The notes beneath the pieces are model-generated. The model saw only the letters and a program-made list of their open reading frames with translations, ran no database searches and was not told where the DNA came from. DNA of 64,000 nt from a virus, in the UHGV virus genome UHGV-0277313. One strand, 5' to 3'. Of this stretch, positions 1,467-41,916 are shown piece after piece; the stretch's first letter is position 1; the number at the start of each line of letters is the position of its first letter. Made by a program: the position numbers and the translations under genes.

Positions 1467-2408
1467 TTATTTCTTTTTCCAAATCAAAAGGACTTCACCA
1501 TTTCTTGAAACATTACCTTTACGTTGAAAATGATTATTATTTGTATGGGAACCTATTTCTTGTTCTTTAATGAAATCGAAAACAGTATCATCCACCACGC
1601 TCATCATTTTTTCTTTAAATTTATTACTGATGATGAATGCGAAGATTTTGCAAGAATCTTTAGAAGTAGCTGTTTTTACAACATTACTCCACCAAATCAG
1701 AAAGTCTTTTTTGGAAAGGTGTTCAGCGCCTTTATCTGAATAGATTTCTTGATTAAAGTAAGGGGGACAAGTGAATACAGCTTCATAAGCTTGATCGGGA
1801 ATAAAATCTTCTGCATCATTGTTATTGAAGAAAACGCTATCAGAAATGTTATTATCAAGTGTTTTCATATCTTTATACATTTCTTTAACATTATTATATG
1901 TAGCTGTATTAATGTCATTGTATATGTATGTAATATCTGGAATTGAGATAGCTCCTAAACAACGGTGTCCCCACCCACCACAAGGGTCATATATAGATTT
2001 AACATTAAAATCTTTAATGAATTGTTTAATATAAAATGGTGAATGATAACTTTTGCCACGGTAGATTCCGGCTTTGCGAAACCCTTGAATAACTTCACCT
2101 TTAGTTAATTCACCAAAACCTTTATTGATATATTGTTTGCGATTTTGATATAGCCAATCACGCAAAGGCATTCCGTGATAGTTTTCATTTTTATTCCACA
2201 TATCAATTTCATGTTTAAACATTTCTTTTGATTGATATTTATTGACGATTTTATTTGTATTGTATAATGCAGAATATCCACGATCTTCTTTTTTAATATG
2301 TTTCCATTCTTGTAGAATTGATTTGTCAGAAACTTCGATATAAAGATCATCATAATAAGAAGCGGGGTAATTAGGTTGTGTTTTAGTTATCATTTTAGTT
2401 ATTTCCAC
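1467..2408 (-). CDS. DNA methyltransferase (amino-MTase: motif I DPCGGWG, motif IV TCPPY)
   Basis: 313-aa ORF with FxGxG-like DPCGGWGHR followed by FTCPPYF (DPPY-type catalytic motif of N6A/N4C MTases). Confidence 0.7.
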   Translation of the reverse strand: MEITKMITKTQPNYPASYYDDLYIEVSDKSILQEWKHIKKEDRGYSALYNTNKIVNKYQSKEMFKHEIDMWNKNENYHGMPLRDWLYQNRKQYINKGFGELTKGEVIQGFRKAGIYRGKSYHSPFYIKQFIKDFNVKSIYDPCGGWGHRCLGAISIPDITYIYNDINTATYNNVKEMYKDMKTLDNNISDSVFFNNNDAEDFIPDQAYEAVFTCPPYFNQEIYSDKGAEHLSKKDFLIWWSNVVKTATSKDSCKIFAFIISNKFKEKMMSVVDDTVFDFIKEQEIGSHTNNNHFQRKGNVSRNGEVLLIWKKK

Positions 2409-2553
2409 AAATTAGTGAATCTTTAAAGATATGAATAAATTATCAGAAACTTTATTAGCTGTCAATTTAAAAATTAATTAAATTGCGAATTTGTTTAGAA
2501 CAAATAACTAAAGTTCTAAATTTATAATTTAACACAACATATGGTGTATTAAA

Positions 2554-2838
2554 ATGTCTGATGAAACTTTAAATTTTGACAATCTTCCAGATATGGAAAA
2601 CTTAATGCAAGAAGATGATGCCGATTCAAATGTTGCTGAAATTGAAAACAACGATTCAGCAAACAATGAAAATGAAGCAGATGACATTGAAAATGAAATG
2701 GAAGCTTCCGAAGATAATGATGAAGATTTTGAAGAATCCGTGATTACATTATTCAATAAAAGTCTTGCTGAAATGGTTGAAAAAGAAACTTTCGATAATA
2801 AAGCGTTGCATGAAGCTTTTGTAAAAGCTTTAGGTTAA
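2554..2838 (+). CDS. highly acidic small protein (about 35 percent D/E), possible DNA mimic
   Basis: 94-aa ORF, SD upstream, runs of D/E/N (EDDADSNVAEIENNDSANNENEADDIENEMEASEDNDEDFEE). Confidence 0.55.
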   Translation: MSDETLNFDNLPDMENLMQEDDADSNVAEIENNDSANNENEADDIENEMEASEDNDEDFEESVITLFNKSLAEMVEKETFDNKALHEAFVKALG

Positions 2839-2858
2839 TTCTATAATAGGTAAGAACA

Positions 2859-3311
2859 ATGGCGGATAATAAACCAGTTGCATATCGTTATGATGATAAA
2901 GGGTATTATATTGGTGAGATTACTTGTCAATTAGATCCTCTAGAATCAAAACTAGCAGGAAAGTCTATATATTTAGTTCCAGGTGAATCAACTTTAGTAA
3001 AACCTTTAAAAGGAAAAGAAGGTTTTAAAGTTAAATGGGACAGTGATTCGTATAAATGGTTTTACGAAGAAGTAATAGTAGAAAAGCCTGAAGAATATGT
3101 TCCGACTGAAGCTGAAAAACTTCAAATGGAAATTTCACAGAAGAAAGGTGAATTGTATAAATCCGATTATAAAGCAATTAAATACGCCGAAGGCTGGATT
3201 TCAGAAGAAGAGTACGCACCTGTAAAAGCTGAAAGACAAGCGATTAGAGACGAAATAAACGCTCTAGAAGCAAAGTTAGCTGAAATCAACGGGAATACAG
3301 CTCAATCTTAA
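2859..3311 (+). CDS. hypothetical protein (weak resemblance to tail-fibre assembly/chaperone C-termini)
   Basis: 150-aa ORF with SD (taggtaagaacaATG); convergent with tail-fibre gene; followed by bidirectional terminator. Confidence 0.5.
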   Translation: MADNKPVAYRYDDKGYYIGEITCQLDPLESKLAGKSIYLVPGESTLVKPLKGKEGFKVKWDSDSYKWFYEEVIVEKPEEYVPTEAEKLQMEISQKKGELYKSDYKAIKYAEGWISEEEYAPVKAERQAIRDEINALEAKLAEINGNTAQS

Positions 3312-3331
3312 TTAAATTGTTGTGTTAATTA

Positions 3332-3358
3332 GAAAGGCCGCTTTAAGCGGCCTTTCTT
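3332..3358. terminator. bidirectional intrinsic terminator between convergent genes
   Basis: perfect hairpin gaaaggccgc-ttta-gcggcctttc flanked by A-run upstream and T-run downstream. Confidence 0.8.
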
Positions 3359-3365
3359 TTTATGT

Positions 3366-6005
3366 TTATGCAATGTTGAATGTTGGATAACGTGATTTGA
3401 CATAAGGATGAATTTTGTCATCTTTATCTGTATACACGTAGAACAACTGTTTATCAGCGATTTGCGAACCACAAACCAAAGGCATATCTTCTTCAGCAAT
3501 AGGTTGCATCATTTCACCATTTGGCATTCTGAAATTGTAAATATTGATTACAATTTTTTCAGGAGCGAACAGATTGTTTTCTTCAATTTTATCAAGTGGT
3601 GAAGTATAGTCTTGACAAATGATCATGCCAGCCCATTGTGGTGTTGTATCCCAATGGTCGCATGAACAATTTGTAAAGTTCACTGTCATTGAAGTGTTTG
3701 TTCTGTTTGACAAGCGCAATACGTTTGATACATGTTCAAAGTAGCAATTATTAAAGTTAACAATTGCACCAGCTTGAGTACCAAAAATTGAAACAGCATT
3801 GTTTGTAAAGTTACCACGGAAGTTGCAATTTTCAAACAAGATGTTTTTAGCTAATTTATCACCAGCCAAACCAATTTCAATACAGTTATATAAGGTTGCA
3901 TCAATATTCATATTTCTGAAAGTAATTGTTTCAGAATCGCTGACAGCAACAACTGTATTTCCGCTAGATTTCTTGAATTCACCAGTGATTGTTGTATCAA
4001 TCATACGAGTTTCTTCAGCAGCAGAAACTTTTACACGGGCGTCGTTTGTGACTGTAGCGCCTTTTAGATCAACTGATTTACCTGTTGCACTCAATGTTGC
4101 AGCAACGTTACCTGAAATAACATAGTCTTTTGTTGTATCAGACAATGTTGTAGGTTCAGTTGTTTCAATTGTAACAGGTTCAATTGATGTTTTCGACAAT
4201 TGAGAAACACGTTCTTCAAGAGCAGTTAAGCGTGTCAAAGCGGATTCAGCTGAACCAGACGCTGATACAGCAGTTTGTTTAACTGAATTCAATTCTGATT
4301 TATCAGCTTTCAGATTGATAGAACCGTTCAAACCTTCAACTTCTGTCGTTAATTCAGCTTTATCAGCTTTTGTATTAACGGTTTCAGTTAAGGCTTCAAC
4401 ATCAGCTTTAGCAGCTTTTGTTTCTAATGTTGAATTGATACCTGAAACAGAGGATGTCAATTCATCTTTATCAGCCTTCAGAGCCAAACCAGAAGTTAAT
4501 TCTTCTTTAGAAGCGAGGCCTGAAAGATCAATACTCGCAACTTTTTCATCAACTTCAGATTTTGAATAAACTTCAGATTTTGCAGCTTTCAGTTCGACTT
4601 TTCCTGACAGTGCTTCGACTTCGGTTTTATCGGCTTTTAAAGCTAAATCTTTATCTGTTGCAATAACGTCATTGTCATTGATGGTAGCCGCGTCTTTTGA
4701 ATTCAGGTTCAAGTGAACTTTAACTGAACCAAAATCAGCAACGTCCCATTTTGACAACATAGCTAGATTTGCACCGTCACCATTTGTCATGACACCAGAA
4801 AGAGCACCATGATTTTCCATCTGAATAAATTTGCGACCTTCATAATCACTGAAAGTAACAACTTTATCTTTATTGACATCAAGCTGATTCTCGTTGAGGG
4901 TTAAGTTTTCAGACGCTGCTAATTTGTCTTGCTTTTTAGCAACTTCATCCATCGCGGCTTTTTCAGCAGCTTTAGCACGTTCAGCTTCTAGTTGTAGATC
5001 TGAAGCAACAGCGCCAACTTTTTCATTGACTTCTGTCTTTTCAGCAAATGTTGACAGATCAATTGTTTCAGAAAGTTTATCCCATTCTGAACCATCCCAT
5101 GCATAATTGGCACCAGTTGATTTAACATTGTAAACATCGCCAATTTCAGCATCAGAAGGTAAGTCATTTGTTGTTTCCACTTGACCTTTATATTTCATAA
5201 AGGAACTTGTTTTAGCATCAATTTCCGCTTTTGTGTAAGCATCGGTGATACCATAACCTTCAAGTGTTGTTGCTTTATCAGCTTTTTTGTTTAGTGTTAC
5301 TGACAGTTCAGCTTTCACAGTTTCAGCAGATGATTCAATTTGAGAAGTTGTTGTATCTGAATTCCAATAATTATCAGCAAGATTCTTTTTATCAGCATTC
5401 AAATCAGATTCGATTTTAGATAAATTTGAACCTAAAGTGTTAACTGTTGTTTGGTCAGCCTTTAGATCTAATTTTTCAGAAATAGTTGTCATTTCTGATT
5501 TGTCAGCTTTTTCAGCTAAAGAAGAATCAAGCTTGCCATCTAAATCTGAAACTGAAAGTTTAACTTCAGCAATAGCAGAAGTATTTTCAGCAACTTTCCG
5601 TTCCAATTCAGCTGTTGAACCACCACTTCCAGATTGTTCAACCCAATTAACAAACCCACCTTCAACAACAGAAAGGACTTTCCCTTCCATTCCTTCAGAA
5701 GAAGGTAAGCATTTTCCGGTTGTTGTTAAATCAGTATTTTCAGCAACATACCGACCGTCTTCTTTATACAGTTTTGTGTATGTGTTTTTGACACGAGCAC
5801 CATTACGAGCTAAATGAACTGTAATAGCAACACTGCTATCAAGTTTAATTTCACCCATATCAGATTGATAGCCTTCACGCGAAACGATCCATTTAACAAT
5901 CGTTCCTTCAGGGACTTCAATTTGATTGCGAGCAACTTCATTTAACTTAACGCTTGCGTCAGAAACGTTATCCACGAATAATTTAAACTTGCAAGTTGTA
6001 GCCAT
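3366..6005 (-). CDS. tail fibre / tailspike protein (long coiled-coil with LKADK repeats, C-terminal right-handed beta-helix-like domain)
   Basis: 879-aa ORF; repeated LKADK/ LAEKADK heptad-like segments; C-terminal NCNFRGNFTNNAVSIFG...NCYFEHV...NFTNCSCDHW typical of pectate-lyase-like beta-helix. Confidence 0.7.
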   Translation of the reverse strand: MATTCKFKLFVDNVSDASVKLNEVARNQIEVPEGTIVKWIVSREGYQSDMGEIKLDSSVAITVHLARNGARVKNTYTKLYKEDGRYVAENTDLTTTGKCLPSSEGMEGKVLSVVEGGFVNWVEQSGSGGSTAELERKVAENTSAIAEVKLSVSDLDGKLDSSLAEKADKSEMTTISEKLDLKADQTTVNTLGSNLSKIESDLNADKKNLADNYWNSDTTTSQIESSAETVKAELSVTLNKKADKATTLEGYGITDAYTKAEIDAKTSSFMKYKGQVETTNDLPSDAEIGDVYNVKSTGANYAWDGSEWDKLSETIDLSTFAEKTEVNEKVGAVASDLQLEAERAKAAEKAAMDEVAKKQDKLAASENLTLNENQLDVNKDKVVTFSDYEGRKFIQMENHGALSGVMTNGDGANLAMLSKWDVADFGSVKVHLNLNSKDAATINDNDVIATDKDLALKADKTEVEALSGKVELKAAKSEVYSKSEVDEKVASIDLSGLASKEELTSGLALKADKDELTSSVSGINSTLETKAAKADVEALTETVNTKADKAELTTEVEGLNGSINLKADKSELNSVKQTAVSASGSAESALTRLTALEERVSQLSKTSIEPVTIETTEPTTLSDTTKDYVISGNVAATLSATGKSVDLKGATVTNDARVKVSAAEETRMIDTTITGEFKKSSGNTVVAVSDSETITFRNMNIDATLYNCIEIGLAGDKLAKNILFENCNFRGNFTNNAVSIFGTQAGAIVNFNNCYFEHVSNVLRLSNRTNTSMTVNFTNCSCDHWDTTPQWAGMIICQDYTSPLDKIEENNLFAPEKIVINIYNFRMPNGEMMQPIAEEDMPLVCGSQIADKQLFYVYTDKDDKIHPYVKSRYPTFNIA

Positions 6006-6062: not shown

Positions 6063-6467
6063 TCAATCTTGCTTTAGCTTCGTTTCGTCAACTGCACCAA
6101 ATTGAATATGAGTTATTGTACCGTCATCATCAGAATAATAAACGTTTTTAATTCCAACATGCCTAATGATTTTTTCACACATAGGGCAAGGTTTTGCACA
6201 ACCAACAACTTTATCTTTAGAGTAACGATACACTAGAATTGAACAACCTTTTAGTTTATTCCAATCAACTTTTAACAGGGCAGATTGTTCAGCATGCAAA
6301 GATTCAGGCCAATGACGATGTTTCATAGGAATGCTAGAGCTACGAATGTCATTATAACCACGAGAAAAAATTCGTTTTCCTTTAAAAATAATAGCTCCAA
6401 TACGAGGGTAGCAAGTAGATTTTTTAGCTTCTTCAATAGCTGCATTAACAATAGATTGATAGATCAT
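6063..6467 (-). CDS. dCMP (cytidine/deoxycytidylate) deaminase
   Basis: 134-aa ORF with zinc-binding HAEQSAL and PCPMCEK (H[AC]E ... PCxxC) motifs of the CDA/dCMP deaminase family. Confidence 0.8.
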   Translation of the reverse strand: MIYQSIVNAAIEEAKKSTCYPRIGAIIFKGKRIFSRGYNDIRSSSIPMKHRHWPESLHAEQSALLKVDWNKLKGCSILVYRYSKDKVVGCAKPCPMCEKIIRHVGIKNVYYSDDDGTITHIQFGAVDETKLKQD

Positions 6468-6539
6468 TTAGTTCGTCTTTGTTCCTGTTAAACAATAAAT
6501 AATTTATATCACACACATAGGATATTGTCAACAGTAATT

Positions 6540-7040
6540 TTAAATTTTATCTAAAACGTCTTCATAGCTTTTAAAAACAATATCGCTTAGTGCATCTTTT
6601 GCGTTGTAGTATGTTTTGCAATAGTCATGCTCAAAGTCAATTGGTTCATTTATTTGATGTTTGCAAAAATCTTTTGTTTTGGGTTCGTATAGAAGAAAAG
6701 TTGTAGGAAGTCTAACAACTAACATTGGAGGATTTTGTTCAGTTGCACTTTTCCATGCAAAGAATTGTACTATAAATCCTTTGTATTGTTGTTTGATAAA
6801 AGAAGACATTTCATTAAATAAATCATAGTCTGTATCAAAATAAATTGTTGTACTATCAGTGTCTTCAGTAAAGCTTTTGATTGTTTCAAAATTAGCGAAA
6901 TTGTCTTCAAAATTTAGTTCGTTAGTTAAATTGTCTTTAGAAATAGTTAGACAGATAGCTTTACCGTTAATCGCATAGTAGCTAAACAGATAATAGACGT
7001 CATCAAATTTTGATTCATTGCAAACTTTAAAATATTCCAT
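6540..7040 (-). CDS. paralog-array protein 1 (C-terminus ...FKSYEDVLDKI)
   Basis: 166-aa ORF, member of 7-gene tandem family sharing the C-terminal block AF.DPIF.NYIDVLNEI. Confidence 0.6.
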   Translation of the reverse strand: MEYFKVCNESKFDDVYYLFSYYAINGKAICLTISKDNLTNELNFEDNFANFETIKSFTEDTDSTTIYFDTDYDLFNEMSSFIKQQYKGFIVQFFAWKSATEQNPPMLVVRLPTTFLLYEPKTKDFCKHQINEPIDFEHDYCKTYYNAKDALSDIVFKSYEDVLDKI

Positions 7041-7049
7041 AAAAATCCT

Positions 7050-7529
7050 TTAAATTTCATTAAGAACATCTTGATAGCTGAACATTTCAGGTGATTTCAA
7101 TGCATCAGAAACAGTATCATAGTATTCAATGATTTTAAAATTTTCTGTATTCTTTCCAGACCATAGCGGTTTGGCATCAAAATCATTTGCTAATCTATAT
7201 ACTTGAACAGCATCAATGTCAATTATAATTATTGAAGTATGCAACAAACCAATCACAGTGTGTCCGGTATTTTTATCAAGTAATGTGCAAATTACAGGTT
7301 CAATATTATTTTCCTCTAAAGTATCGTCTAAATGTGACAGCATTTCTTTCAAGGAATTGTTGTGAATAATTTTATATTCTTTATTTGGAATTTTAGAAGG
7401 AAATATATATAGACGATTGTCGTCTATATAAAGTGCTTGAACTGTTGTTGTATCTTCTGTTTTATTAAACACTTCTAAAACATAAATAATATTTTTTGAG
7501 AAGATAATATCAAATTGTTTTATTTGCAT
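7050..7529 (-). CDS. paralog-array protein 2 (C-terminus ...FSYQDVLNEI)
   Basis: 159-aa ORF, tandem family member. Confidence 0.6.
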   Translation of the reverse strand: MQIKQFDIIFSKNIIYVLEVFNKTEDTTTVQALYIDDNRLYIFPSKIPNKEYKIIHNNSLKEMLSHLDDTLEENNIEPVICTLLDKNTGHTVIGLLHTSIIIIDIDAVQVYRLANDFDAKPLWSGKNTENFKIIEYYDTVSDALKSPEMFSYQDVLNEI

Positions 7530-7541
7530 GTCCTGTTCCTT

Positions 7542-8054
7542 TTAGATTTCGTTTAAAATGTCAATATAATTTTTAAAGATAGGATCTTGAAAGGCGTCTT
7601 CTATGTTTGTATAAAGTTTAACATAATTATTTTCATCTTGTAATTTAGATTCAGCGCTTGTTGAACTTAAGACTTCGAACTTTTTACTGTTTGGTGAATA
7701 AATTAAATATTGGTCATCAATGTTAATTAACAATTTTGGTTTACTGTATGCACTATCACAAAATACAAATACGTCAGAAGTATTAAGCTTGAATATTCTT
7801 TTATACGATTGTTGTATGTCATTCAACATTTCAACATCTGTATCAAAATCTGTTTTGACATAATCGTCCAAATGTTCGTCAGTAAAGTTTTTAATAATCC
7901 AGATGTTAGCATGGTGATAATCACGATTATTTGTTGTAAGAGAGAAGTTTAATGTGTTGTTAACTTCAACACCTTCAATAACATAAAATGTAATGAATGT
8001 GTCAAGTACATCAATAGTTTGTCTTGTTTTTGAATACTTACAATATTTTGTCAT
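7542..8054 (-). CDS. paralog-array protein 3 (N-terminus MTKYCKYSKTRQT, C-terminus NYIDILNEI)
   Basis: 170-aa ORF; first 13 codons plus upstream region identical at DNA level to gene at 9101..9604. Confidence 0.65.
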   Translation of the reverse strand: MTKYCKYSKTRQTIDVLDTFITFYVIEGVEVNNTLNFSLTTNNRDYHHANIWIIKNFTDEHLDDYVKTDFDTDVEMLNDIQQSYKRIFKLNTSDVFVFCDSAYSKPKLLINIDDQYLIYSPNSKKFEVLSSTSAESKLQDENNYVKLYTNIEDAFQDPIFKNYIDILNEI

Positions 8055-8080
8055 TGTTATATTCCTATTTAAATTTCGTT
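8017..8080. repeat. 64-bp exact direct repeat, copy A (spans a gene start, RBS and the preceding gene's end)
   Basis: tttgtcttgtttttgaatacttacaatattttgtcattgttatattcctatttaaatttcgtt identical to 9567..9630. Confidence 0.85.
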
Positions 8081-8584
8081 AAGTACATCAACATAGTTTT
8101 TAAAAATAGGATCGTTGAAAGCTTGCAGAATATCACTGTATTCTCGTATGTAATAATCTTCATTTTGAAGTTTCATGTTTAAAAGATATCGTGACGTAAA
8201 AAAGATTGTTTGTTTTTTAGGTGTATAAACTAAAGAATTGTTTTTATAATTTATAGCAATATTTGGTATACTTTTAAGTGATTCAGCATATACCATAATG
8301 TTGTTTGTATCAATATTATTTGCTTTCTTTATGGAATTTTCAAGATCTTCGAACATTTTGATGTCATTGTCAAAATCAACCTTCTGTAAATTTTCATTTG
8401 GAGTTTTAGGGTCGAAATTAAAACTTTGCGAAATGAGTAAATCATAGTAGTTATCTTTTTTATAATAAGTCAATAAAGTTTGAATTACACTACATTCGTT
8501 GTTCGTTGAAATACAATAATAGCTTTCATACATATCAACAAATTGTAAATGCTCTTCTCGATAATATTTATAAAAATTGCTCAT
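8069..8584 (-). CDS. paralog-array protein 4 (C-terminus NYVDVLNEI)
   Basis: 171-aa ORF, tandem family member. Confidence 0.6.
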   Translation of the reverse strand: MSNFYKYYREEHLQFVDMYESYYCISTNNECSVIQTLLTYYKKDNYYDLLISQSFNFDPKTPNENLQKVDFDNDIKMFEDLENSIKKANNIDTNNIMVYAESLKSIPNIAINYKNNSLVYTPKKQTIFFTSRYLLNMKLQNEDYYIREYSDILQAFNDPIFKNYVDVLNEI

Positions 8585-8593
8585 GTCAAACCT

Positions 8594-9100
8594 TTAAATT
8601 TCATCTAAAACATTTATATAACTTAAAAAGATTGGATCTTTAAAAGCATCTGAAATATCACTATATGTCTTAAAATAATCATATTGTTTATTGATTTCTT
8701 CTCGAATGTTGGCAACAAAATCCAAAATGATATTTTTATAAATTGGGGAGTATATCAAAATATCATTTTCAATAGGTATAATGATTTTAGGAGTTTCTTT
8801 CAGATCTGCCATTTGCCAGACATATACTTCATAATTCTTTATTTTATACATATCTGTATATAAACGTTGTATATCTTCAAATAATTCGACATCACTTGAA
8901 AAGTTGATTCTTTTATAATCATTATCTAAACTATTAAGAATTTGTATGTTGCTGCTAGTGTTGACAACATACCCATTAGAACCGTCAACGTATTGTGAAC
9001 ATACAAAAGCAAAACATTGTTTATCAATCACATAAAAATTTCTTACGTGATGTCCGCTTTTATTTGTATTCTCAAAAACATATTTACAAAATTTTGTCAT
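8594..9100 (-). CDS. paralog-array protein 5 (N-terminus MTKFCKY, C-terminus SYINVLDEI)
   Basis: 168-aa ORF, tandem family member. Confidence 0.6.
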   Translation of the reverse strand: MTKFCKYVFENTNKSGHHVRNFYVIDKQCFAFVCSQYVDGSNGYVVNTSSNIQILNSLDNDYKRINFSSDVELFEDIQRLYTDMYKIKNYEVYVWQMADLKETPKIIIPIENDILIYSPIYKNIILDFVANIREEINKQYDYFKTYSDISDAFKDPIFLSYINVLDEI

Positions 9101-9604
9101 TTAAATCTCGTTTAATACGTCAATGTAATTTGTGAATATTAAATCTTTTAAAGCAGTTTCAACAAAGTTGTATTTTTGATGATAGGCAATCTCATTTTCA
9201 TCAAACCATTGATCAACGACATATCCACTGACAGCATTAACATCGTCTGTTGCAGGTGTATATATAATAGCGTCACTTTGAATGAACATTATAAGTTTAG
9301 GTTTAGAATAGATATCATTGAATTGAATTACTAAATTCTCAACTGTCTTCTTTTCATAAAAGCTTTTATATTGATTTTGTAAATCAGAAAACAACTCTAT
9401 TGCATTATTAAAATCTGTTTTGTTTTTTTCATCTAAAGAGACAATAATTTCATCCGCATTTCCTGAAGTAATATTATATGTAGGAAAGACACGCTCAACA
9501 GAAAATTGTACTAAAATATATTTTTTATTAATAATATAATAGGCTGTATAATGTTTTCCTGTATTTGTTTGTCTTGTTTTTGAATACTTACAATATTTTG
9601 TCAT
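9101..9604 (-). CDS. paralog-array protein 6 (N-terminus MTKYCKYSKTRQT, C-terminus NYIDVLNEI)
   Basis: 167-aa ORF; zero-nt spacing to next paralog; shares the 64-bp repeat. Confidence 0.65.
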   Translation of the reverse strand: MTKYCKYSKTRQTNTGKHYTAYYIINKKYILVQFSVERVFPTYNITSGNADEIIVSLDEKNKTDFNNAIELFSDLQNQYKSFYEKKTVENLVIQFNDIYSKPKLIMFIQSDAIIYTPATDDVNAVSGYVVDQWFDENEIAYHQKYNFVETALKDLIFTNYIDVLNEI

Positions 9605-9630
9605 TGTTATATTCCTATTTAAATTTCGTT
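9567..9630. repeat. 64-bp exact direct repeat, copy B
   Basis: identical to 8017..8080; copies are 1550 bp (three gene units) apart. Confidence 0.85.
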
Positions 9631-10137
9631 TAAAACATCAATGTAATTTATAATAGAAGGGTCTTTGAAAGCTTCAGCAACTGTTTCATAACGTTTCAAA
9701 TATACAGCATCTTCTGTCATAAATTTAGGTATTTTGGTTGCTTTTATACTATTAACAGAATCATTCTCAAATGAATAGTAAAAACTATAATCAGTATCAT
9801 TTATTGCAAATAATATGGCAGGACGCTTGTTAATATCGGTTAAAATAACAAAAATTTGTAAAGGTAAATTTTCGAAATGTTTTTTAAACCCATTGACAAA
9901 GTCTTTAAACAATTCCTCAACATTATCAAACATGATGGTTTTATAATCTAAAAATGAAAGAGGTACATCTAGTGTAGGTGATGTATGTACGTCATATTTT
10001 AAATAATCATCTTTTAAATACTTTGTAAAAACAGATATAAATGCCGTTTTGTTAACTATGTATTTATTATATTCAGATTCTTCTTTAAATCGTGACGAAG
10101 TTGCTTCTTCATAATATTTAAAATATAGATTATTCAT
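9619..10137 (-). CDS. paralog-array protein 7 (C-terminus INYIDVLNEI)
   Basis: 172-aa ORF, tandem family member. Confidence 0.6.
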   Translation of the reverse strand: MNNLYFKYYEEATSSRFKEESEYNKYIVNKTAFISVFTKYLKDDYLKYDVHTSPTLDVPLSFLDYKTIMFDNVEELFKDFVNGFKKHFENLPLQIFVILTDINKRPAILFAINDTDYSFYYSFENDSVNSIKATKIPKFMTEDAVYLKRYETVAEAFKDPSIINYIDVLNEI

Positions 10138-10279: not shown

Positions 10280-11887
10280 TTAGACATTATTTTCAGCAAG
10301 TGAAACTTTTGTATAAGAATTGATAACATCAGTAGTATTACCAACACCTAAGTTACCAAGTTTGTTATAACCAACTAAATAAGCATCACCTTTTGTTGTT
10401 ACATACCCAGAGTTGTACATTGTCATTCCGTGTACATAATTTAGCGTGAAATCTGCAACATTACTGTTAATAAGTACAAGACCTGTTTCAGCAGAATTTC
10501 CAACGACATTGTTTGATGTATTATTAGAATATTTATATAATTCACCGTTTTCAGTTAAAGCTAACAGTGCATATTTATTATTTTGCCCACCAGATGAAAC
10601 ATCAAAAATGTGTTGCAATTTTTTCACTTTTGCTATTAAAACATTTGACGGATAGTAACTATATGTATTGATATAGGAAAGGTGACATAAAGAACCATCA
10701 TCTAATAAAACCAAACCACCAGAATATAGTGAATCTGTTAAGCTAAGTATATTTTTAATATTTTTAGCAATTTCTTTTTTGGAAGAATCTGTATAAATAG
10801 AATAACTATGGCTTCCAGGGCTATTTGAAGAGTAGTAATATTCTTTTATATTTATTTTATTGTTAGCTTCATAAAGGACATCCAAATGATAAACTGTCGA
10901 ACTATAATGTTTATATACAATTGATAGTATCTTCATACTTCCTGACATTAATTTGAAAGAGTATGATTTAGGTGAATATTTTGCCGAAAAATCAGAATAA
11001 GGGCCAGTACAGTATAATTTATGATCATTAGTAATGTAATAAGTCGCCCAATCAGCAAATTGGTATATGTCTTTTACGTTTGTCGCTAGTTCAATAAATG
11101 TTGTTGCTTCTTGTCCATTATTGCTTAACAGACGATCAGAGTCACTTCCGATACCAAAAAGTGTATCATCATTTGTTATATAGAAAGCATTCACGTAACC
11201 TTCATATATTGTTTTTACATAATCAGCAATTTTTTCAAAATCCCCAGTTTTTGAATAATATTGCTTTGAAGATATAAATAATTCATCGTTTTCTGTTACA
11301 TACATTGGCATTAAATATGTCCCAGAGTATGACATTCCCAAACAAGCATCGCGAACATTTTCAGCCACTTTTGTAAATTCAGTAACTGCATTTGTTGATG
11401 AAGGATTACCTAAAAGACGTGAATGACCAGCGGCATATAAATCACCATTATCCATAATCAAATAAGTGCCATATTGGCCACATAATTTAATTTTCTTAAC
11501 GCCTTGACCTAAACGTTGCAACAGAATTTGAATCTCTTTATTTGTATCAGCAATTGTTGAGCCTGATAAGTCTTGCATGCCGACATGTTTTGCAGTATAG
11601 TTAATTTGTTCGTTTTGGTTCGTAATAACCATATTACCGAAATTCAATAACTCATTACCGTCATTATCTGTAAATGTCATTTCAGAATCATTTGGTTTAG
11701 GAGAGAATTTAGTAATCTTTAAATCACCTAAATCAACTTTTCCTGATGTTGTTTTAATTTCAGAAATCTTTTGTGCATAGTTTTCAAAAGGTGCAGTTTT
11801 ATTAATATCTGAACCTTTTTTCACAATAGACTGATATATGTCTTTTTTAATTTTAAGAATTTCTTTAATCTGCTCAATATTTGACAT
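10280..11887 (-). CDS. RCC1-like beta-propeller repeat protein (possible structural/receptor-binding protein)
   Basis: 535-aa ORF with repeated G.N..G.LG-like units (LYAAGHSRLLGN, LFGIGSDSDRLLSNNG, LVGYNKLGNLGVGNT) characteristic of RCC1 blades. Confidence 0.55.
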   Translation of the reverse strand: MSNIEQIKEILKIKKDIYQSIVKKGSDINKTAPFENYAQKISEIKTTSGKVDLGDLKITKFSPKPNDSEMTFTDNDGNELLNFGNMVITNQNEQINYTAKHVGMQDLSGSTIADTNKEIQILLQRLGQGVKKIKLCGQYGTYLIMDNGDLYAAGHSRLLGNPSSTNAVTEFTKVAENVRDACLGMSYSGTYLMPMYVTENDELFISSKQYYSKTGDFEKIADYVKTIYEGYVNAFYITNDDTLFGIGSDSDRLLSNNGQEATTFIELATNVKDIYQFADWATYYITNDHKLYCTGPYSDFSAKYSPKSYSFKLMSGSMKILSIVYKHYSSTVYHLDVLYEANNKINIKEYYYSSNSPGSHSYSIYTDSSKKEIAKNIKNILSLTDSLYSGGLVLLDDGSLCHLSYINTYSYYPSNVLIAKVKKLQHIFDVSSGGQNNKYALLALTENGELYKYSNNTSNNVVGNSAETGLVLINSNVADFTLNYVHGMTMYNSGYVTTKGDAYLVGYNKLGNLGVGNTTDVINSYTKVSLAENNV

Positions 11888-12318: not shown

Positions 12319-12347
12319 TTGACAATTTTTTGTAAGTTTGTTATTGT
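12319..12347 (+). promoter_or_regulatory. sigma70-like promoter (TTGACA-N17-TATTGT) in divergent AT-rich control region
   Basis: ttgacaattttttgtaagtttgttattgt about 40 nt upstream of the 12387 start; region 11888..12386 separates divergent gene blocks. Confidence 0.5.
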
Positions 12348-14261: not shown

Positions 14262-14812
14262 GGTTTGCTAATTTAAATTATTTGGGTGCGACATATCTAA
14301 CAGAAAATGAAATACAGAGAGTGTTTTTCTATAAGATAGATAACACCTTAATTCCTATATCCCTAAACTTTATTGATTTTATGAAGATTTTTTATATCGA
14401 TGCGAAGTGCGATCTGAATAGTTGCCTGACTAATATTTATTGCTATGATCTAAATGATGTAGACGACAATGATGTTTCTGTAGATAACAAAATATATATG
14501 ACGAAATCTTTTACAAACTATTCAAGACCTGTAGAAAATGTCTGTTTCTTCTATTATAAAAAGAAACGGTATTTGCAAATGCAAAAGATTTTATCATGGC
14601 AACAATCAGATGATTTTAACATTACAATATCTTCTGTAAAAAAAGTGCACCATTTCGAGAATGTTCAATTGATTGTTGTAGAAAATCAGTTTCAACATTA
14701 TGTTAGTGTGAATTCAATTGAGTACAATAAAAATGTTTACGGGTTACCTAGATATGAGACTGTGAAACTTTTAAAATACAATTCAAGTTTAAAGCAATAT
14801 GTTGAAGCTTGA
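14258..14812 (+). CDS. hypothetical protein
   Basis: 184-aa ORF with ATGA overlap to upstream gene. Confidence 0.5.
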   Translation: MRFANLNYLGATYLTENEIQRVFFYKIDNTLIPISLNFIDFMKIFYIDAKCDLNSCLTNIYCYDLNDVDDNDVSVDNKIYMTKSFTNYSRPVENVCFFYYKKKRYLQMQKILSWQQSDDFNITISSVKKVHHFENVQLIVVENQFQHYVSVNSIEYNKNVYGLPRYETVKLLKYNSSLKQYVEA

Positions 14813-14865
14813 CAATGTTTGTTTTATGTGATAGATTGAACTATCAAATTATGAAAGGAACCTAA

Positions 14866-16459: not shown

Positions 16460-16851
16460 ATGAAAGAAACAATATGTTCCAAAACCGAGAAGAATTAAAA
16501 GAAGACTTCGATGAAGTTCCTGTGAACGAAAATCAAATTTGTTACCCTGATGAAGATTGTTTGGAAATCTTAAAGGAAAATGAAGATTGAATAGACATAG
16601 CTTTTTTAAATTATTTCCAATTCTATACGACGTAAAATGATTTGTAAAATGGTGGAAAAAAGCATTTAGTTGAAAAGTGTTATATCAGATTTGGAAGAAT
16701 TCCTAAAAATGAAAAAAGTGGAATTCATTTAGGTAAAGATATACGTTTTGAAAATGGGGTTTCTGTTTGGGATGCTGTAAAATTAAAGGACGGTTATCAT
16801 CTTGTTGCTCCTCTTCAAGGAAATACTTGCACTTATACCGATTTTATAAAA

Positions 16852-17046
16852 ATGGCGTTTCCTCAAGAGTGGTATGGAGATTTCGTTTCACATGAACCAA
16901 TTTATGTCGTTTCTGGTGATGAAGTCGGTCGTGGAAGTGATAATGAACCTTTACTGAAAAATATAAAAATAATTGAAGAATTACCTTTTGATTATTTTAA
17001 CTATGGCCCCACATATGAAAAGTATATGCCAAAGGAAAAAGAATGA
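16852..17046 (+). CDS. hypothetical protein; frame is open from 16648 without an ATG, upstream ATG at 16649 is in the +1 frame across an A6 run (possible frameshift or pseudogene)
   Basis: frame-1 ORF ...KHLVEKCYIRFGRIPKNEKSGIHLGKD...YVVSGDEVGRGSDNEPLL continues to 17046; MVEK start at 16649 joins it with a -1 shift at ggaaaaaag. Confidence 0.4.
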   Translation: MAFPQEWYGDFVSHEPIYVVSGDEVGRGSDNEPLLKNIKIIEELPFDYFNYGPTYEKYMPKEKE

Positions 17047-17099
17047 ATGATTGTTGGTAAAGGAAAATTTTAAAGTCCATGAAATGTTTATAAAAAAAT

Positions 17100-17520
17100 T
17101 CGTGAAGTTGAAAAATTGTGTGCACTTTAATAATAGGTAATGATAAGTGGTGCTTTGCGATAAAAGAAATGCTTTATGATAAAAAATAAAGAAAGATTAT
17201 AATAAAAGATAACTATAATAATGGTAAAAGAAAAAGAGAGTATTATAATGGGATGAATGAAAGTTAATGTTGTGTGAGTGATGATTAGGATGGGGTGATT
17301 TTGGTATGCAGGGAAAATGATGTATGAAGTAGTGAAGATGAAGACAGTAAGAGATGAAAGATATTAGTCTGAAGAAAGGGTAAGATGATTGGGGAAATGA
17401 GTGTGGGGGTTATGTGGTGGCAAAAGGTGAAGAAGATGAAGAATATGAATAACGGCGATGTTTATGGTGTTGCATGAAAATTGGATGAATCGAAGAGTAT
17501 TGTGTATTCTATCTCGTGCC
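17100..17520 (+). other. C-depleted purine-rich tract (G/A/T-rich, ORF-free on both strands)
   Basis: about 400 nt with very few C on the plus strand; reiterated gatgaag / gtgaagatgaag / gatgatt-gggg units; G-runs. Confidence 0.6.
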
Positions 17521-17713
17521 TGTTTTTCGGTATAACTATATTATCGAAAGGGAATAGAGCAGATAGGAAAACGGCAAGCGGGGCGCAAGCCCCTATACCG
17601 AAAGCCTTATTGACTATATAGGGATATATAGTAGAGTTAGGTATAAGGAAATCAGTATAACAGGCTTGATAGGTAGTTAATACCGAAAAACCCGCTTGCC
17701 GTTAAAATTCCTG

Positions 17714-17742
17714 TTGACAAGTTTCTGATTTTTTGATAGTAT
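17714..17742 (+). promoter_or_regulatory. sigma70-like promoter (TTGACA-N17-TAGTAT) inside ORF-free region
   Basis: ttgacaagtttctgattttttgatagtat; no ORF downstream for about 800 nt. Confidence 0.6.
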
Positions 17743-17748
17743 ATAACT

Positions 17749-18300
17749 ATCGAAAGGGAATAGAGGATAAACAGGGATTTAAGGTATCAGAGGAAACTGG
17801 TATCATAGGTAAAGCTTTTATTAAGCATTGTTTGACATATAAGACAGTGTTTAATAAAAGCTTTATTTGTTAATGGTACGGTATCCGATACCTGATAAAC
17901 AGTTAAGCTGTTGTATCACTTGTTAATAAAGAGTGGTATAGCGGGTTAACGACCTTTAATCAGTCATTATAAAGTGGTAAAGCAAAGTAATGACGAAATG
18001 ATTAAAGGAATTATCAGGTTCACGTGTGAAAAAGAAAGCACGGCGGAACTATATACAGAATAAATAAAGTGAATGAAATGTCGTTTCAATTTTGTTGAGT
18101 TTAGAAACGACTGAAAACTTTAATCTTAAAATCAATTAAGGTTAAAGTGAAACAATCTATATTATTTAATATAGATTTAAACAGTTAAGGCAAGACTGAA
18201 AAGAAATGCCTTGATAGGTAATAACTCAACGGGATCAAATTCCCTTAATGAAAATAGATGAATTAAAAATAGTTTGTTTATTTTTCGTTAAGGGTGAAAA
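17749..18300 (+). ncRNA. candidate large structured ncRNA (boundaries uncertain; structured sequence also upstream 17531..17710)
   Basis: nested helices: cggcaagcggg(17572)/cccgcttgccg(17693); ggggc-GCAA-gcccc GNRA hairpin; aaagcttttatt(17808)/aataaaagcttt(17853) 12-bp closing helix; ggtatc-c-gatacc; aacag-ttaag-ctgtt; direct repeat ataactat(att)atcgaaagggaatagag at 17531 and 17740. Confidence 0.35.
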
Positions 18301-18549
18301 TACGGTGGTGAGCCAATCGACAAAAAGTTTCACGACCGTAAAACAAACCGTCTGAAATGGTTTGGATTTGTCTAGGTCAGTTTACTGATTTGAACTCACT
18401 CCTGCTTTAAGTGTATGTGAGAAGTAGGCTGTGGAACAAATCTGTATTGAAATAGATTACTCTAAGTCATTTCAGATATTTTAAGAACAGATTGGAATAA
18501 ACTAAAATAGAATGAAATGGTTTATTCCGAAACAAGAAAGGAAAAGAAA

Positions 18550-18963
18550 ATGATTAGAAACTTCACGCCGCATAAAATCAATCTGTTCGCCGAAGACGGC
18601 AGAATATTGAAAGTATTCGAGCCGGAAGGGCTTGCAAGGGCGGAACAAAAGGCCATCATCGTTGACGAAATTCAATTCGGGAACGACATTGTTCCCGTCA
18701 AAAAGATGATTTTCGGGAGCGTCGAAGGACTTCCCGAAACGGCGGGAGAATACGATAAATTTATCGTGTCGTCCATCGCCGCACAGGCGGCGATGGAGAC
18801 GAACCATCCGTTGAAAAATCAGCTCTTGGTCGTTGCAGACCCTGTTCGCAACGAAGACGGACAAATTATAGGCTGTAAAGCCTTTTCGACTTTCCGAGAT
18901 GAGAATGATCTCGGCGAGATTATGAGCTTGGCTAACAAGCTCAACGACAAATACGCTCGGTAA
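18550..18963 (+). CDS. hypothetical protein
   Basis: ORF with SD aaggaaaagaaaATG; first gene of the GC-richer plus-strand block. Confidence 0.55.
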   Translation: MIRNFTPHKINLFAEDGRILKVFEPEGLARAEQKAIIVDEIQFGNDIVPVKKMIFGSVEGLPETAGEYDKFIVSSIAAQAAMETNHPLKNQLLVVADPVRNEDGQIIGCKAFSTFRDENDLGEIMSLANKLNDKYAR

Positions 18964-39606: not shown

Positions 39607-41916
39607 ATGGAAGTTAAAACGTCGAATGTGGTTATGGAAAGCAGTGAACAGTTGCAAGAAAAACAATTTACGATTGCAACGAATGCGAAAGCGTTTGAAA
39701 TCCTGACGAGTACATTGTATAAGAATGTTCCGTCGTCAATCGTTCGGGAATTGATTTCGAATGGTTATGATGGACATGTTCGTGCGGGGAATGTCGATAA
39801 AGAAATTGAGGTACATGCCCCGTTTGTTTTTGAACCGACTTTTGAAGTTCGTGATTTTGGTTGTTCGATGGACGAAGAAACGATGATGAATGTATATACG
39901 ACATTCTTTTCATCGACCAAAAACGCGGATAACAATGAAGTCGGCGGTTTCGGGTTGGGTTGTAAATTGCCGTTTGCATATACGGATATGTTCACTATTA
40001 CAACGTATCTGAATGGCAAACAGCAAGATTATATCGCCAGCAAGAACAATGGTGTTCCGACATTGAGCAAGTTGGGAGATGCAACTGATACGTCTGAACC
40101 GAATGGCGTTAAGGTGTGTGTTCCTGTTCAAGAAGACGACATTGATGCCTTCTGTGGGGCTGTCAAGTATATGGTGAGATATTCCAAGTTTAAAATCAAA
40201 TCAAATTTGGAATGTGAAGCTGTGAAAGAATATGACAACTTCGGGTTGACAAACTTTCACAATTATGGTCAAATCACTGAAGAAGATAGATGTTTCAAAT
40301 GGAAACAGATTATCAGAGTTGGTGGTGTGCCGTATGCCTTTGACAAAAGCACGATGGAGCAAGACTTCATTGGTTGGCAAGATGTCAAGTACTTCAAGCT
40401 TGAAAAAACCTATGAGGGAAACAACGCATTGTTGCATGAAGCTTTGGCTGAATGTAATGATACGGAATTTCTTGAATGTAACATGTCGCAGCTGTTTAAC
40501 TTCAATGGCTGTTTGGATTTTGAAGTGGGTGAATTGGATATTACGGCATCGAGAGAATCCTTGCAGTATTCAAAGAAAACCCGTAAAGCGTTATTCAAAC
40601 GATTGGTTGAAGTGCAAACTGCTTTGTCGAAACGTCTGACAAAGATGTTAGATAAGTGGAACAATAACGTTGGAACGTTTCAGGAAGCGTTGGAGAAGTT
40701 AAAATACTTCAAACAAATTCAATGGGGAGCGTTTTCGTATGTTGTCAGAAACCGCCCGTTCAAATACAGATGCGGTCGTCATGAAAACAAAGTTAATTTG
40801 GATTCGTGTGACGTGTCGCTGGTTTGTTATGGGGATCAGGTGTTGAAAGAAAACGATTTGTTGAAAGGTTTGATTACGCCTAAACTTCATACGTTAAATG
40901 GAGATACAAAACGTATTCAACATTCAGCAAGATTGACGACGTTTAATCCTTGTAAGGGTTTGAAACAGATTGAGGTTTATTTGACAAATGCCCCTTTGAA
41001 ACATTCGGGCATTTCAATAAGCCAAGAAGAGATTAACTTGTTAGGTCGGTATTCGGCGTGCAAGGCAATCATTTCTGTTTCGAGTCGTTCAAACGTTAAA
41101 GAGCAAGGAGAGTGGCTGCAAAAACAGTTTGATGAAATTTGTCCAGACCTGTATAAAGTAATCACGGTTGACAAGAAAGATTGTTTCATTCCGAAAGTTG
41201 AAAAGGAAAGAAACGGTAAGACTGTCACAGTGGTTGCTGAAGACGAACGCCCGATGACGATTGCCGCCAAAGAGTTGATTGAACAGATGAAACCGATCAG
41301 CGATTGTTTTGGTCAAATCTATCTGTTCAAATCAAACAGTATTCAATATCAAGTACAACGGGTATTGGAGAGTTTGGTGATGGCAAAAGACTTAACGGGT
41401 ATTCCTGACTTAACCCCGATTCTTGAATGTGTCAAGATTCATGGAACGGCAAGAAAGATGGTTGAGAAATACACTGATATTCCTGTTGTCTTCTTTGAAG
41501 ATGAAATGGAAAACGACAGAAACGGTGATGTTATCTTCCGTCATGAATTGTTCCGTAAATTGAAACATGTCTTGCAAAGAATATGTTTCTTTATAAACAT
41601 GGATTCTGATACTGCAAAACTTGGAAGGGCTATCGTTAAATATGGCAAAGACCTTAATGTGAACATGGATACATTGAAGGTGATGGCACAATATAAGGAG
41701 ATGGCTTTCCCGAATTTGTATCTGTCGGAAGTCAATATGGATTCTGATCATGTTCAAGAGGTTTGGGTGAATGTCTGTCGGAATTGTCTTAACCGTTTGG
41801 ATAATGAACAAAGGTTCAAACTGTTGGCACAAATCTTCTTGAACTGTAGCTTCTATTTGCCGAATAAGCCGTTCAGGAAACTGATTGCAAGTTTCGGCTT
41901 GACAACGGACAGGTAA
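39607..41916 (+). CDS. GHKL-superfamily (Hsp90/MutL/histidine-kinase-like) ATPase domain protein, 769 aa
   Basis: N-box RELISNGYDG and G-box GGFGLGCK in N-terminal 160 aa; long uncharacterised C-terminal region. Confidence 0.65.
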   Translation: MEVKTSNVVMESSEQLQEKQFTIATNAKAFEILTSTLYKNVPSSIVRELISNGYDGHVRAGNVDKEIEVHAPFVFEPTFEVRDFGCSMDEETMMNVYTTFFSSTKNADNNEVGGFGLGCKLPFAYTDMFTITTYLNGKQQDYIASKNNGVPTLSKLGDATDTSEPNGVKVCVPVQEDDIDAFCGAVKYMVRYSKFKIKSNLECEAVKEYDNFGLTNFHNYGQITEEDRCFKWKQIIRVGGVPYAFDKSTMEQDFIGWQDVKYFKLEKTYEGNNALLHEALAECNDTEFLECNMSQLFNFNGCLDFEVGELDITASRESLQYSKKTRKALFKRLVEVQTALSKRLTKMLDKWNNNVGTFQEALEKLKYFKQIQWGAFSYVVRNRPFKYRCGRHENKVNLDSCDVSLVCYGDQVLKENDLLKGLITPKLHTLNGDTKRIQHSARLTTFNPCKGLKQIEVYLTNAPLKHSGISISQEEINLLGRYSACKAIISVSSRSNVKEQGEWLQKQFDEICPDLYKVITVDKKDCFIPKVEKERNGKTVTVVAEDERPMTIAAKELIEQMKPISDCFGQIYLFKSNSIQYQVQRVLESLVMAKDLTGIPDLTPILECVKIHGTARKMVEKYTDIPVVFFEDEMENDRNGDVIFRHELFRKLKHVLQRICFFINMDSDTAKLGRAIVKYGKDLNVNMDTLKVMAQYKEMAFPNLYLSEVNMDSDHVQEVWVNVCRNCLNRLDNEQRFKLLAQIFLNCSFYLPNKPFRKLIASFGLTTDR

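Follow-up and report, generated by a model that had tools for sequence, protein, structure and literature searches.

To our knowledge, bacteria and phages have only a handful of described RNA classes above 500 nucleotides (nt) in length, and most of them are of unknown function. Among these, GOLLD and ROOL fall into the 0.6-1 kb size class; tRNA genes are frequent near their phage loci. A different point of comparison is the left end of phage T7, where 0.9 kb of non-coding DNA carries the tandem promoters A1-A3 and an RNase III site ahead of the anti-restriction gene 0.3. Phages can also derive regulatory RNAs from leaders, as with c4 of P1/P7 and CI of P4, which act by antisense pairing. Finally, gut phages of Bacillota and Bacteroidota carry UG27 arrays, which are long, structured intergenic regions with units of about 135-167 nt that have only short motifs in common (bioRxiv 10.64898/2026.09.22.753630). 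Here we describe an element of ~1.07 kb on the + strand at 17462-18529 of a 64,000-nt stretch (hereafter the window) of the gut phage genome UHGV-0277313, which is best read as an unclassified multi-domain RNA with ~30 helices, GNRA-type and A-rich loops and long irregular hairpins.

The element shares with GOLLD and ROOL its size class, the many covarying helices, the GNRA and A-rich loops and a location in phages; like them, it has no known protein partner and a function that cannot be deduced from sequence. It differs in giving no match to their models up to E<=10, in having no adjacent tRNA genes, an internal promoter and no 3' terminator, and in occurring in just two phage lineages. ARAGORN found no tRNA or tmRNA in the 64-kb window. 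At gathering thresholds Rfam had no match in the whole window, and permissive scans of 16900-18650 (E<=10) and of the homologue in the second lineage (L015, E<=1) detected no GOLLD, ROOL, HEARO, OLE or raiA, just chance matches of microRNA and small RNA (sRNA) models to a long hairpin. General literature searches gave no description of this RNA. A group I or group II self-splicing intron was rejected, since no model matched save for a 12.8-bit chance match to GIR1 and the flanks are separate, complete genes. Compensatory changes above controls and strand specificity, both detailed below, identify the element as a structured RNA; it belongs to no described family and is a new class within the large structured phage RNAs. 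A first-pass annotation of the window had proposed such an RNA at 17520-18500, which it could not assign to a known class by inspection. It placed the region correctly, although the conserved unit is slightly longer; an Rfam match is absent, and conservation and covariation are present.

Neither strand has an open reading frame (ORF) of at least 60 amino acids (aa) in the interval from the stop codon at 17046 to the start codon at 18550, just as the annotation had stated, and the longest measures 46 aa. This ORF-free gap of 1455 nt (17047-18501) is by far the largest in the window, with runners-up of 392 and 294 nt. The window phage is represented by a ~277-kb scaffold (ENA ERZ28615576, scaffold_19), of which other assemblies hold identical copies. 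Further contigs of its clade (L004, L005, L006, L009, L012, L007/8 and L078-83) were reached via homologues of the downstream 137-aa protein, and all of them keep the gap. A second lineage, comprising a ~313-kb phage (L015 = L059 = L065) plus L064-L075, was reached via an 18-mer of the element, TATCGAAAGGGAATAGAG. The element is confined to these two lineages of about 280-315-kb gut phages, and blastn and nhmmer found no paralogous copy elsewhere in the window, where it is single-copy.

Identity between the two lineages is 80.4% exactly over 17462-18528, with similarity that starts and stops sharply; by column, it reaches 88% at paired and 70% at unpaired positions. Three neighbouring genes are 78%, 89% and 59% identical between the lineages at codon positions 1, 2 and 3, and their four-fold degenerate sites are 31-39% identical, so neutral sites are saturated at this distance. 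The core is as constrained as those positions of the neighbouring genes at which a change alters the amino acid (non-synonymous positions). L012, a member of the window clade, shares 94.9% identity with the window over the core and 79% over the downstream genes. Insertions and deletions (indels) in the core among relatives have lengths that are not multiples of three and are tolerated in loops; the long hairpin at 17805-17870, for instance, lacks 8 nt of its loop in some relatives.

The minimum free energy (MFE) of 17880-18548 is -205 kcal/mol on the + strand (z = -12.5 against dinucleotide shuffles) and -137 kcal/mol on the - strand (z = -7.5). Base pairing was assessed in three alignments, A4 (the 3' two-thirds of the core), A5 (including the window and L015) and A7 (the whole core in 14 sequences), and in slid controls in which pairing partners were displaced by 1-3 columns. 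Seventeen of the 213 pairs predicted in A4 are compensated, against 0-3 in the slid controls and 3.9 +/- 1.5 in shuffles, none of 500 of which reached 17. Over the whole core, 266 consensus pairs have 99.2% of their cells paired, and 18 of them are compensated versus 0-4 in the slid controls, which substantiates the covariation that the first-pass annotation had suspected by eye. Between the window and L015 (A5), none of 287 consensus pairs is lost in L015, all 48 changed pairs still pair and two more are found in L015 only, a count with some circularity, the structure having been fitted to that same alignment. Since the consensus structures share this fitting, the window sequence was folded alone as a non-circular test: 22 doubly changed pairs of its MFE fold still pair in L015, compared with a mean of 5.4 and a maximum of 14 when the same substitutions were placed at random (2000 trials). 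The compensatory changes are distributed over at least 10 helices. Several pairs show three states within the window clade (e.g., U-A, U-G and C-G), and thus add independent events beyond the deep split.

These changes also reveal the strand. G-U cells outnumber A-C cells by 519 to 9, and the same structure is 99% paired on the + strand versus 86% on the - strand, so the pairing is strand-specific and points to a + strand RNA instead of a DNA site. That the region is a selected RNA structure at all is a conclusion we hold with high confidence. The fold itself is under purifying selection, and neither a peptide nor a DNA site accounts for the pattern. The parts of the gap, in order, are these.

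17047-17461, + strand: variable C-poor spacer outside the core, with three TATAAT boxes and the 9-nt repeat AAGATGAAG x2.9 at 17424-17449
17462-18529, + strand: conserved structured RNA core of ~1.07 kb, with sharp similarity borders between lineages
17462-17520, + strand: conserved 5' segment carrying a weak promoter-like block pair
17474-17503, + strand: candidate weak promoter P0, ATGAAA-N18-TATTGT, a weak match at the 5' edge of conservation
17521-17552, + strand: hairpin Hb', the upstream copy of a repeat unit, 10 bp, whose 3' arm is the start of the 18-mer
17542-17559, + strand: 18-mer copy 1, exact, preceded by TTCTAT-N18-TATAAC-TATATT
17571-17702, + strand: domain D1, a 130-nt rod closed by a perfect 12-13-bp stem
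17614-17631, + strand: D1 tip hairpin CUAUAUA-GGGA-UAUAUAG with a GNRA-type loop
17714-17742, + strand: predicted promoter P1, TTGACA-N17-TAGTAT with a TG extended -10, internal to the conserved element
17729-17757, + strand: hairpin Hb, 12 bp, overlapping the P1 -10 box and the likely start site
17748-17765, + strand: 18-mer copy 2, an exact copy
17783-17804, + strand: hairpin Hc, with pair 17784/17803 occurring as G-C, G-U and A-U
17805-17875, + strand: 29-bp near-perfect A/U-rich hairpin (17805-17870) followed by UUUAUUUGUU, flagged as terminator-like in a scan
17876-18054, + strand: multi-branch domain D2, with hairpins 17902-21/17931-50 (19 bp), 17963-70/17987-94 and 18023-27/18038-42
18017-18053, + strand: 37-nt block GGTTCACGTGTGAAAAAGAAAGCACGGCGGAACTATA inside D2, invariant in every sequence
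18079-18215, + strand: domain D3 of four hairpins, 18079-92/18097-112, 18118-29/18136-47, 18155-18177 and 18184-91/18208-15
18242-18294, + strand: hairpin CCCUUAAUGA.../...UCGUUAAGGG with an inner helix and compensated pairs
18302-18339, + strand: hairpin ACGGU.../...ACCGU with two compensatory pairs (GCAGU/ACUGC in the second lineage)
18350-18477, + strand: irregular long hairpin of 128 nt with a 17-bp base helix (18350-66/18461-77)
18493-18529, + strand: terminal hairpin, 12 bp, at the 3' edge of conservation, with no U-tract after it
18537-18552, + strand: ribosome-binding site AAAGGA and ATG of the first downstream gene (137 aa, 18550-18963), outside the conserved element

The 5' part of the core is organized around a duplication. 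The 18-mer, already noticed in the first-pass annotation as a direct repeat, is exact at 17542 and 17748, 206 nt apart (chance expectation 0.01), with no third copy in the window at up to 3 mismatches, and the units around it (17523-59 and 17729-65) are paralogous across roughly 50 nt. The upstream hairpin Hb' shows two one-sided C-to-U changes retained as G-U and no broken pair; its counterpart Hb shows one compensatory pair (G-C to A-U) and two wobble changes. Between the two units lies D1, with stacked helices at 17586-91/17663-68, 17594-601/17652-59 and 17605-08/17645-48. Its closing stem had been listed as an 11-bp long-range pair and is really a perfect 13 bp (17570-17582/17691-17703); the evidence on it is mixed, as one pair has changed to G-U and two isolated mismatches, at different pairs, are each confined to a single lineage. 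The hairpin at the tip of D1, likewise foreseen, reads UCAUAUA-GCAA-UAUAUGA in the second lineage, with two compensatory pairs and a loop that is still of GNRA type. In Hc, the changes at 17784/17803 include an independent event within the window clade, and the second lineage has rebuilt the 3' arm as GGUAUC/GAUACC.

Other helices of the first-pass annotation fared less well. The pairing of its ggggc-GCAA-gcccc hairpin (17580-17593) survives the relatives' changes; three G, however, are common to this hairpin and the 13-bp stem, and the consensus fold prefers CAAGCC/GGCTTG (17586-91/17663-68), which survives the relatives' changes as well. The ggtatc-c-gatacc hairpin would need an impossible 1-nt loop, and relatives form a differently registered one; aacag-ttaag-ctgtt is not conserved (AGCTA in the second lineage) and gives way to the 19-bp hairpin 17902-17921/17931-17950; a 12-bp complement, 17522-33/17680-91, is not kept in the second lineage. 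By comparison, the aaagcttttatt/aataaaagcttt helix is present as part of a 22-29-bp hairpin at 17805-17870. Five one-sided changes in this long hairpin keep its pairing, and the 8-nt loop deletion is that of L009 and L081-83. The scan counted 4 G-C among 20 pairs in its stem, and the U-tract that follows is partly paired with upstream bases, with pairing-preserving changes there too.

The 3' part is similarly supported. D2 has compensatory pairs at 17902/17950 (A-U, G-C, G-U) and 17968/17989 (C-G, U-A, U-G), and its 19-bp hairpin carries 7 wobble-type changes. The invariant 37-nt block comprises a 5-bp hairpin, an A-rich 10-nt loop and the palindrome CACGTG; its invariance, which places it beyond the reach of covariation, would point to a specific contact. 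In D3, hairpin 18118-47 has one compensatory pair, hairpin 18155-77 changes from AAUCUAUAU/AUAUAGAUU to CAUACUGUA/UACAGUAUG in the second lineage, and the stem 18184-215 is retained despite a 6-nt loop insertion. The sequence GUUGAGUU (18097-18104), in the loop of hairpin 18079-18112, is perfectly complementary to AACUCAAC (18224-18231), and both are invariant. They could form a long-range pseudoknot, which covariation cannot reach because of that invariance. In hairpin 18242-18294, the pair 18244/18292 changes from C-G to U-A and two inner pairs are compensated; an alternative local hairpin, 18232-18246, covaries with the same column, which is therefore a three-way covarying column. The 128-nt hairpin has five compensatory pairs in its base helix and two further ones higher up. 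In every lineage the terminal hairpin ends about 20 nt before the ribosome-binding site, and sequence similarity between relatives stops a few bases past it. The first gene after it varies among five kinds, a 137-149-aa family or a 120-aa, 157-aa, 61-aa or 96-aa gene, so the core is a self-contained ~1.07-kb module and no appendage of one gene.

How would such an RNA be made? The consensus promoter that the first-pass annotation had marked at 17714-17742 is present, with a TG extended -10. In every relative its hexamers and TG are kept or improved (TAATAT in the second lineage) while the 17-nt spacer diverges, and promoters of the same type lie at other intergenic sites of the window (12319-12347, 14809-14837 and 224-196), the first two ahead of rightward genes; P1 is thus very likely a real host-polymerase promoter. 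Downstream of its -10 box the sequence reads TAGTAT-ATAACT-ATCGAAAGGGAATAGAG, to be compared with GATACT-TACAGCC-ATCGAGAGGGACACGGCGAATAGCC at T7 A1, where the annotated start is at that A. By this analogy, transcripts from P1 would probably begin with 18-mer copy 2, at about A17749 (+1). The likeness of window 17743-17765 (ATCGAAAGGGAATAGAG) to the A1 start in T7 (NC_001604, 491-522), ATCGAGAGGGA[CACGGCG]AATAGCC, is striking and may be convergence on a promoter-escape sequence, or chance.

P1 does not fire into all of the helices as first proposed, since the best of those listed, the 13-bp stem and the two GNRA-type hairpins (17570-17703), lie upstream of it. The conserved, covarying helices within 17521-17702, like the hairpin spanning the -10 box, require an RNA that starts upstream of the P1 start. 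Such RNA could come from read-through of the 12319 or 14809 promoters, between which and the core no terminator is predicted in the window, or from weak P0. The scan found an equivalent of P0, ATGAAA-N18-TATAGT, at the same place in L065, and both blocks are conserved in A5; we infer a promoter there from these blocks. Upstream of 18-mer copy 1, TTCTAT-N18-TATAAC looks like a degenerate copy of P1.

The next landmark is the long hairpin with its U-rich tail, about 60-125 nt past the likely P1 start. Its length and near-perfection suit an RNase III substrate, and 17805-17875 may act as an intrinsic terminator that leaks, as a site of RNase III-type processing, or in both ways. Promoter and terminator scans found no conserved promoter or terminator bracketing the downstream domains, and the 650 nt past the hairpin are constrained on the same strand without a conserved promoter, which argues that the hairpin is leaky or a processing site. 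No terminator-like structure closes the 3' end of the element, and hence the primary transcript would run on into the downstream genes.

On balance, we lean towards an RNA that is made early at the head of a rightward operon, is released by cleavage at its long hairpins and acts through its fold. Host RNA polymerase would transcribe the element early, in part from P1, starting probably at A17749 within the 18-mer, and in part by read-through or from a weak upstream promoter, a second source required for the conserved 17462-17713. The 29-bp hairpin and its U-rich tail would be either leaky or a processing site, and transcription would continue past the terminal hairpin, which lacks a U-tract, into whichever gene cassette follows. 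Cutting of this primary early transcript at the long double-stranded hairpins would yield one or more stable, highly folded RNAs, whose three-dimensional (3D) fold would be the functional product, for example as a scaffold, a decoy or a protein-binding RNA, and would leave the downstream mRNA with a hairpin-protected end. The c4 and CI RNAs are comparable in that a functional RNA is cut from the 5' part of an operon transcript; they differ in being ~70-80 nt long and antisense to repeated downstream targets, and no such target repeats are seen here.

Several points weigh against this model. Because there are just two deep lineages among the collections searched, most compensatory changes trace to one split and the number of independent events is modest. 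The long-range consensus pairs 17503-05/18487-89 and 17710-17/18226-33 are invariant, which makes covariation uninformative on them. At the 5' edge no promoter passes the consensus scan, and at the 3' edge no terminator was found. The long hairpin could be an efficient terminator after P1, in which case the 3' 650 nt would need another promoter; a short transcript stopping soon after the promoter may be compatible with the hairpin and its U-rich tail. Ending ~20 nt short of a ribosome-binding site, the element is laid out as one would expect of a pure 5' leader. The ends, processing and abundance of the transcript are things that we infer from the sequence, and the functions named above are candidates.

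A more specific form of this idea, which we put forward tentatively as a possibility, is that the element represents a class of ornate RNA particular to jumbo phages, of 0.65-1.07 kb, released from the early transcript and acting in trans via its 3D fold. If so, it could be a self-assembling scaffold like the ROOL and GOLLD particles, a decoy for host defence or RNA-binding proteins, or a ribozyme. The sequence may be compatible both with action in trans and with a role as leader only, that is, with a free-standing non-coding RNA (ncRNA) as well as with a giant leader.

The foremost alternative, which we judge rather unlikely, is this purely cis-acting giant 5' leader, a promoter cluster and structured leader of the rightward early operon that would provide processing sites, nuclease protection, terminator read-through or a generic platform for expressing interchangeable first genes. 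No conserved promoter lies closer than P1 ahead of the genes that start from 18550, the element ends without a terminator and at a constant short distance from the ribosome-binding site, and gene cassettes are swapped exactly at its 3' boundary. The T7 early region strengthens the comparison. There, too, about 1 kb of non-coding sequence stands at the head of the early operon, with a consensus host promoter, a duplicated promoter-like unit upstream (here a degenerate second copy of the P1 region, reminiscent of tandem early promoters), an A1-like initial transcribed sequence (ATCGAAAGGGAATAG here versus ATCGAGAGGGA...GAATAG), long hairpins suited to RNase III and variable first genes. However, the element is internal to its scaffold and not at a known genome end, its conservation begins 250 nt upstream of its strong promoter, and its structure far exceeds what processing sites need: ~1 kb with ~30 conserved helices and an invariant 37-nt block, at a distance where synonymous sites are saturated, is more than known leaders require. 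Nor was a conserved terminator/antiterminator alternative found. The one candidate, 18344-18364, is not conserved and fails in L015, and the helix that competes with it has 5 compensations. The three-way covarying column (18232-46 versus 18242-94) could be a switch; no terminator precedes the gene. Even if it served solely as a leader, the element would stand out among bacterial and phage 5' leaders by its size and degree of conservation.

Instead of one large RNA, the region might hold several independent small RNAs, namely a ~125-nt unit (17749-17875), its upstream paralogue (17543-17705) and more units downstream. We consider this improbable. The 125-nt unit is bracketed by a promoter, the shared 5' 18-mer and the terminator-like hairpin, domains of about 130-185 nt are locally closed, and no covariation-supported helix joins distant domains. 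Yet no conserved promoter or terminator surrounds the downstream domains, the U-tract of the long hairpin is itself base-paired with pairing-preserving changes, and all domains keep their order and spacing in both lineages.

An element acting as DNA, such as a replication origin, a packaging site or a set of operator palindromes for a phage regulator, is a very remote prospect. The inverted repeats at the -10 regions and the C-poor/G-rich flank would then work at the DNA level. In its favour, each of the two repeat units has a palindrome, TTTTYGRTA-N9-TATCGAAAGG, overlapping its -10 box and start site, GC skew is extreme just upstream, as in R-loop origins, and many assemblies break in the region. 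The excess of G-U over A-C cells, with one strand selected for pairing, speaks against it, as do the long-range compensated helices and conserved GNRA-type loops, which suit RNA; moreover, the cumulative GC-skew minimum and the switch in gene orientation lie near 11-12 kb and not at the element, and the C-poor flank is not conserved in sequence.

We give almost no credence to a template array for a reverse transcriptase (RT), whether of UG27 type or retron/DRT-like. As in UG27 arrays, this is a long structured intergenic region of gut phages with unit-like hairpin domains (~130-185 nt) and a repeated motif, but no RT domain (PF00078) was found in a Pfam scan of the 20 large window ORFs or in the precomputed Pfam marks within ~20 kb of the element in relatives. 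The element thus differs in lacking nearby RT or accessory genes; its domains are not one repeated unit, with no shared motif beyond the first two, and their composition is fixed between lineages.

A decayed or unusual coding sequence (pseudogene, recoded genes or small proteins) has a negligible chance, for all that the neighbouring gene at 16660-17046 is frameshifted in the window phage and a 46-aa ORF (17481-17621) is open in the window and L015, because that ORF is read in different frames over its middle and interrupted in L005 and L009, and because decay cannot yield 80% conservation with compensatory pairs. As the only ORF open in both lineages, it was rejected as a conserved small gene, and no ORF of at least 25 aa is intact across all relatives of the core. 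Stop-codon recoding or an alternative genetic code was ruled out as well, since TAA, TAG and TGA are all frequent in all six frames, with 6-30 copies of each per frame on the + strand and 2-16 on the - strand, so that recoding opens no gene. A type III toxin-antitoxin system (ToxI-like) was also considered and rejected: there is no short-repeat array, and the sole tandem repeat, 9 nt x 2.9, lies outside the core.

A new large RNA with ~30 comparatively supported helices, a defined promoter and a phage context makes a tractable case for study. It means that huge gut phages reserve ~1 kb, under tight sequence constraint, for RNA where an early operon begins, and the fixed boundary before exchanged first genes offers a handle for early, possibly anti-defence cassettes in uncultured phages.

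The two lineages were all that we recovered, with no third in any collection searched (INPHARED, PLSDB, IMG/VR, JGI metagenomes, GTDB and protein clusters). Neither public phage genomes (INPHARED, blastn) nor plasmids (PLSDB) matched the element. Searches of IMG/VR via a neighbouring protein and one 24-mer gave nothing, and three more patterns gave one contig and chance matches. JGI metagenomes matched only the second-lineage phage, and GTDB genomes yielded two contigs of that phage binned into metagenome-assembled genomes (MAGs). The additional second-lineage copies are 99.6-100% identical to each other and add almost no diversity. The two binned contigs, L074 and L075 (CALAFU010000170.1 and CALBJM010000331.1), sit in 'Candidatus Melainabacteria' and Erysipelotrichaceae MAGs; as these bins disagree, at least one is a binning artefact and neither is reliable as host evidence. 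Nine contigs from independent assemblies (L081, L082, L083, L012, L007/L008, L079, L002 and L078) end within window 17283-18379. The simplest cause is branching of the assembly graph, the core being common to co-occurring strains with different flanking genes.

The spacer upstream of the core (17047-17461, 415 nt) aligns among members of the window clade, where L005 shows indels of 8-9 nt, and is not alignable to the second lineage, which has at that place an unrelated 1.4-kb non-coding stretch, likewise with C-poor patches. On the + strand of window 17050-17450, C makes up only 1-6% per 100 nt and GC skew rises to about +0.8-0.9. The C-poor stretches of L065, at 9200-9450 and 10350-10400, are unrelated in sequence to those of the window and also lie just upstream of the RNA. 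Such a stretch might serve as an unstructured spacer, as DNA prone to R-loops or as a promoter region. Exactly at the gap, G+C rises from 27-30% (about 7-17 kb) to 38-42% (about 18 kb onwards), which places the element at the border of two compositionally different gene modules on the same strand.

The proteins that flank the element are all without annotation and hence offer no functional clue. The upstream 184-aa protein has just two clusters among 5.8 billion proteins, plus one IMG/VR locus. Compared with L004 and L005, window 16626-17046 lacks about 500 bp with a 183-aa gene, and the next gene, 128 aa long and intact in L004, L005, L006 and L009, is broken in the window into two ORFs (16767-16895 and 16852-17046), a pattern that indicates a frameshifted pseudogene or a sequencing error. 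In L010/L011, an unrelated phage with a homologue of the 137-aa protein, no non-coding gap lies beside that homologue. The same contigs carry genes for a PurZ-like adenylosuccinate synthetase and of dATP/dGTP pyrophosphohydrolase type at 1860-4337, the gene set of 2-aminoadenine (Z) genomes. Elsewhere in the window, eight paralogous genes of about 134-172 aa form a head-to-tail tandem array on the - strand at 6063-10137, and the second lineage has a smaller set of 169-173 aa (L064, 1-1237). A 769-aa rIIA-like protein is encoded at 39607-41916, its N-terminal half ~31% identical to rIIA of large enterobacterial phages.

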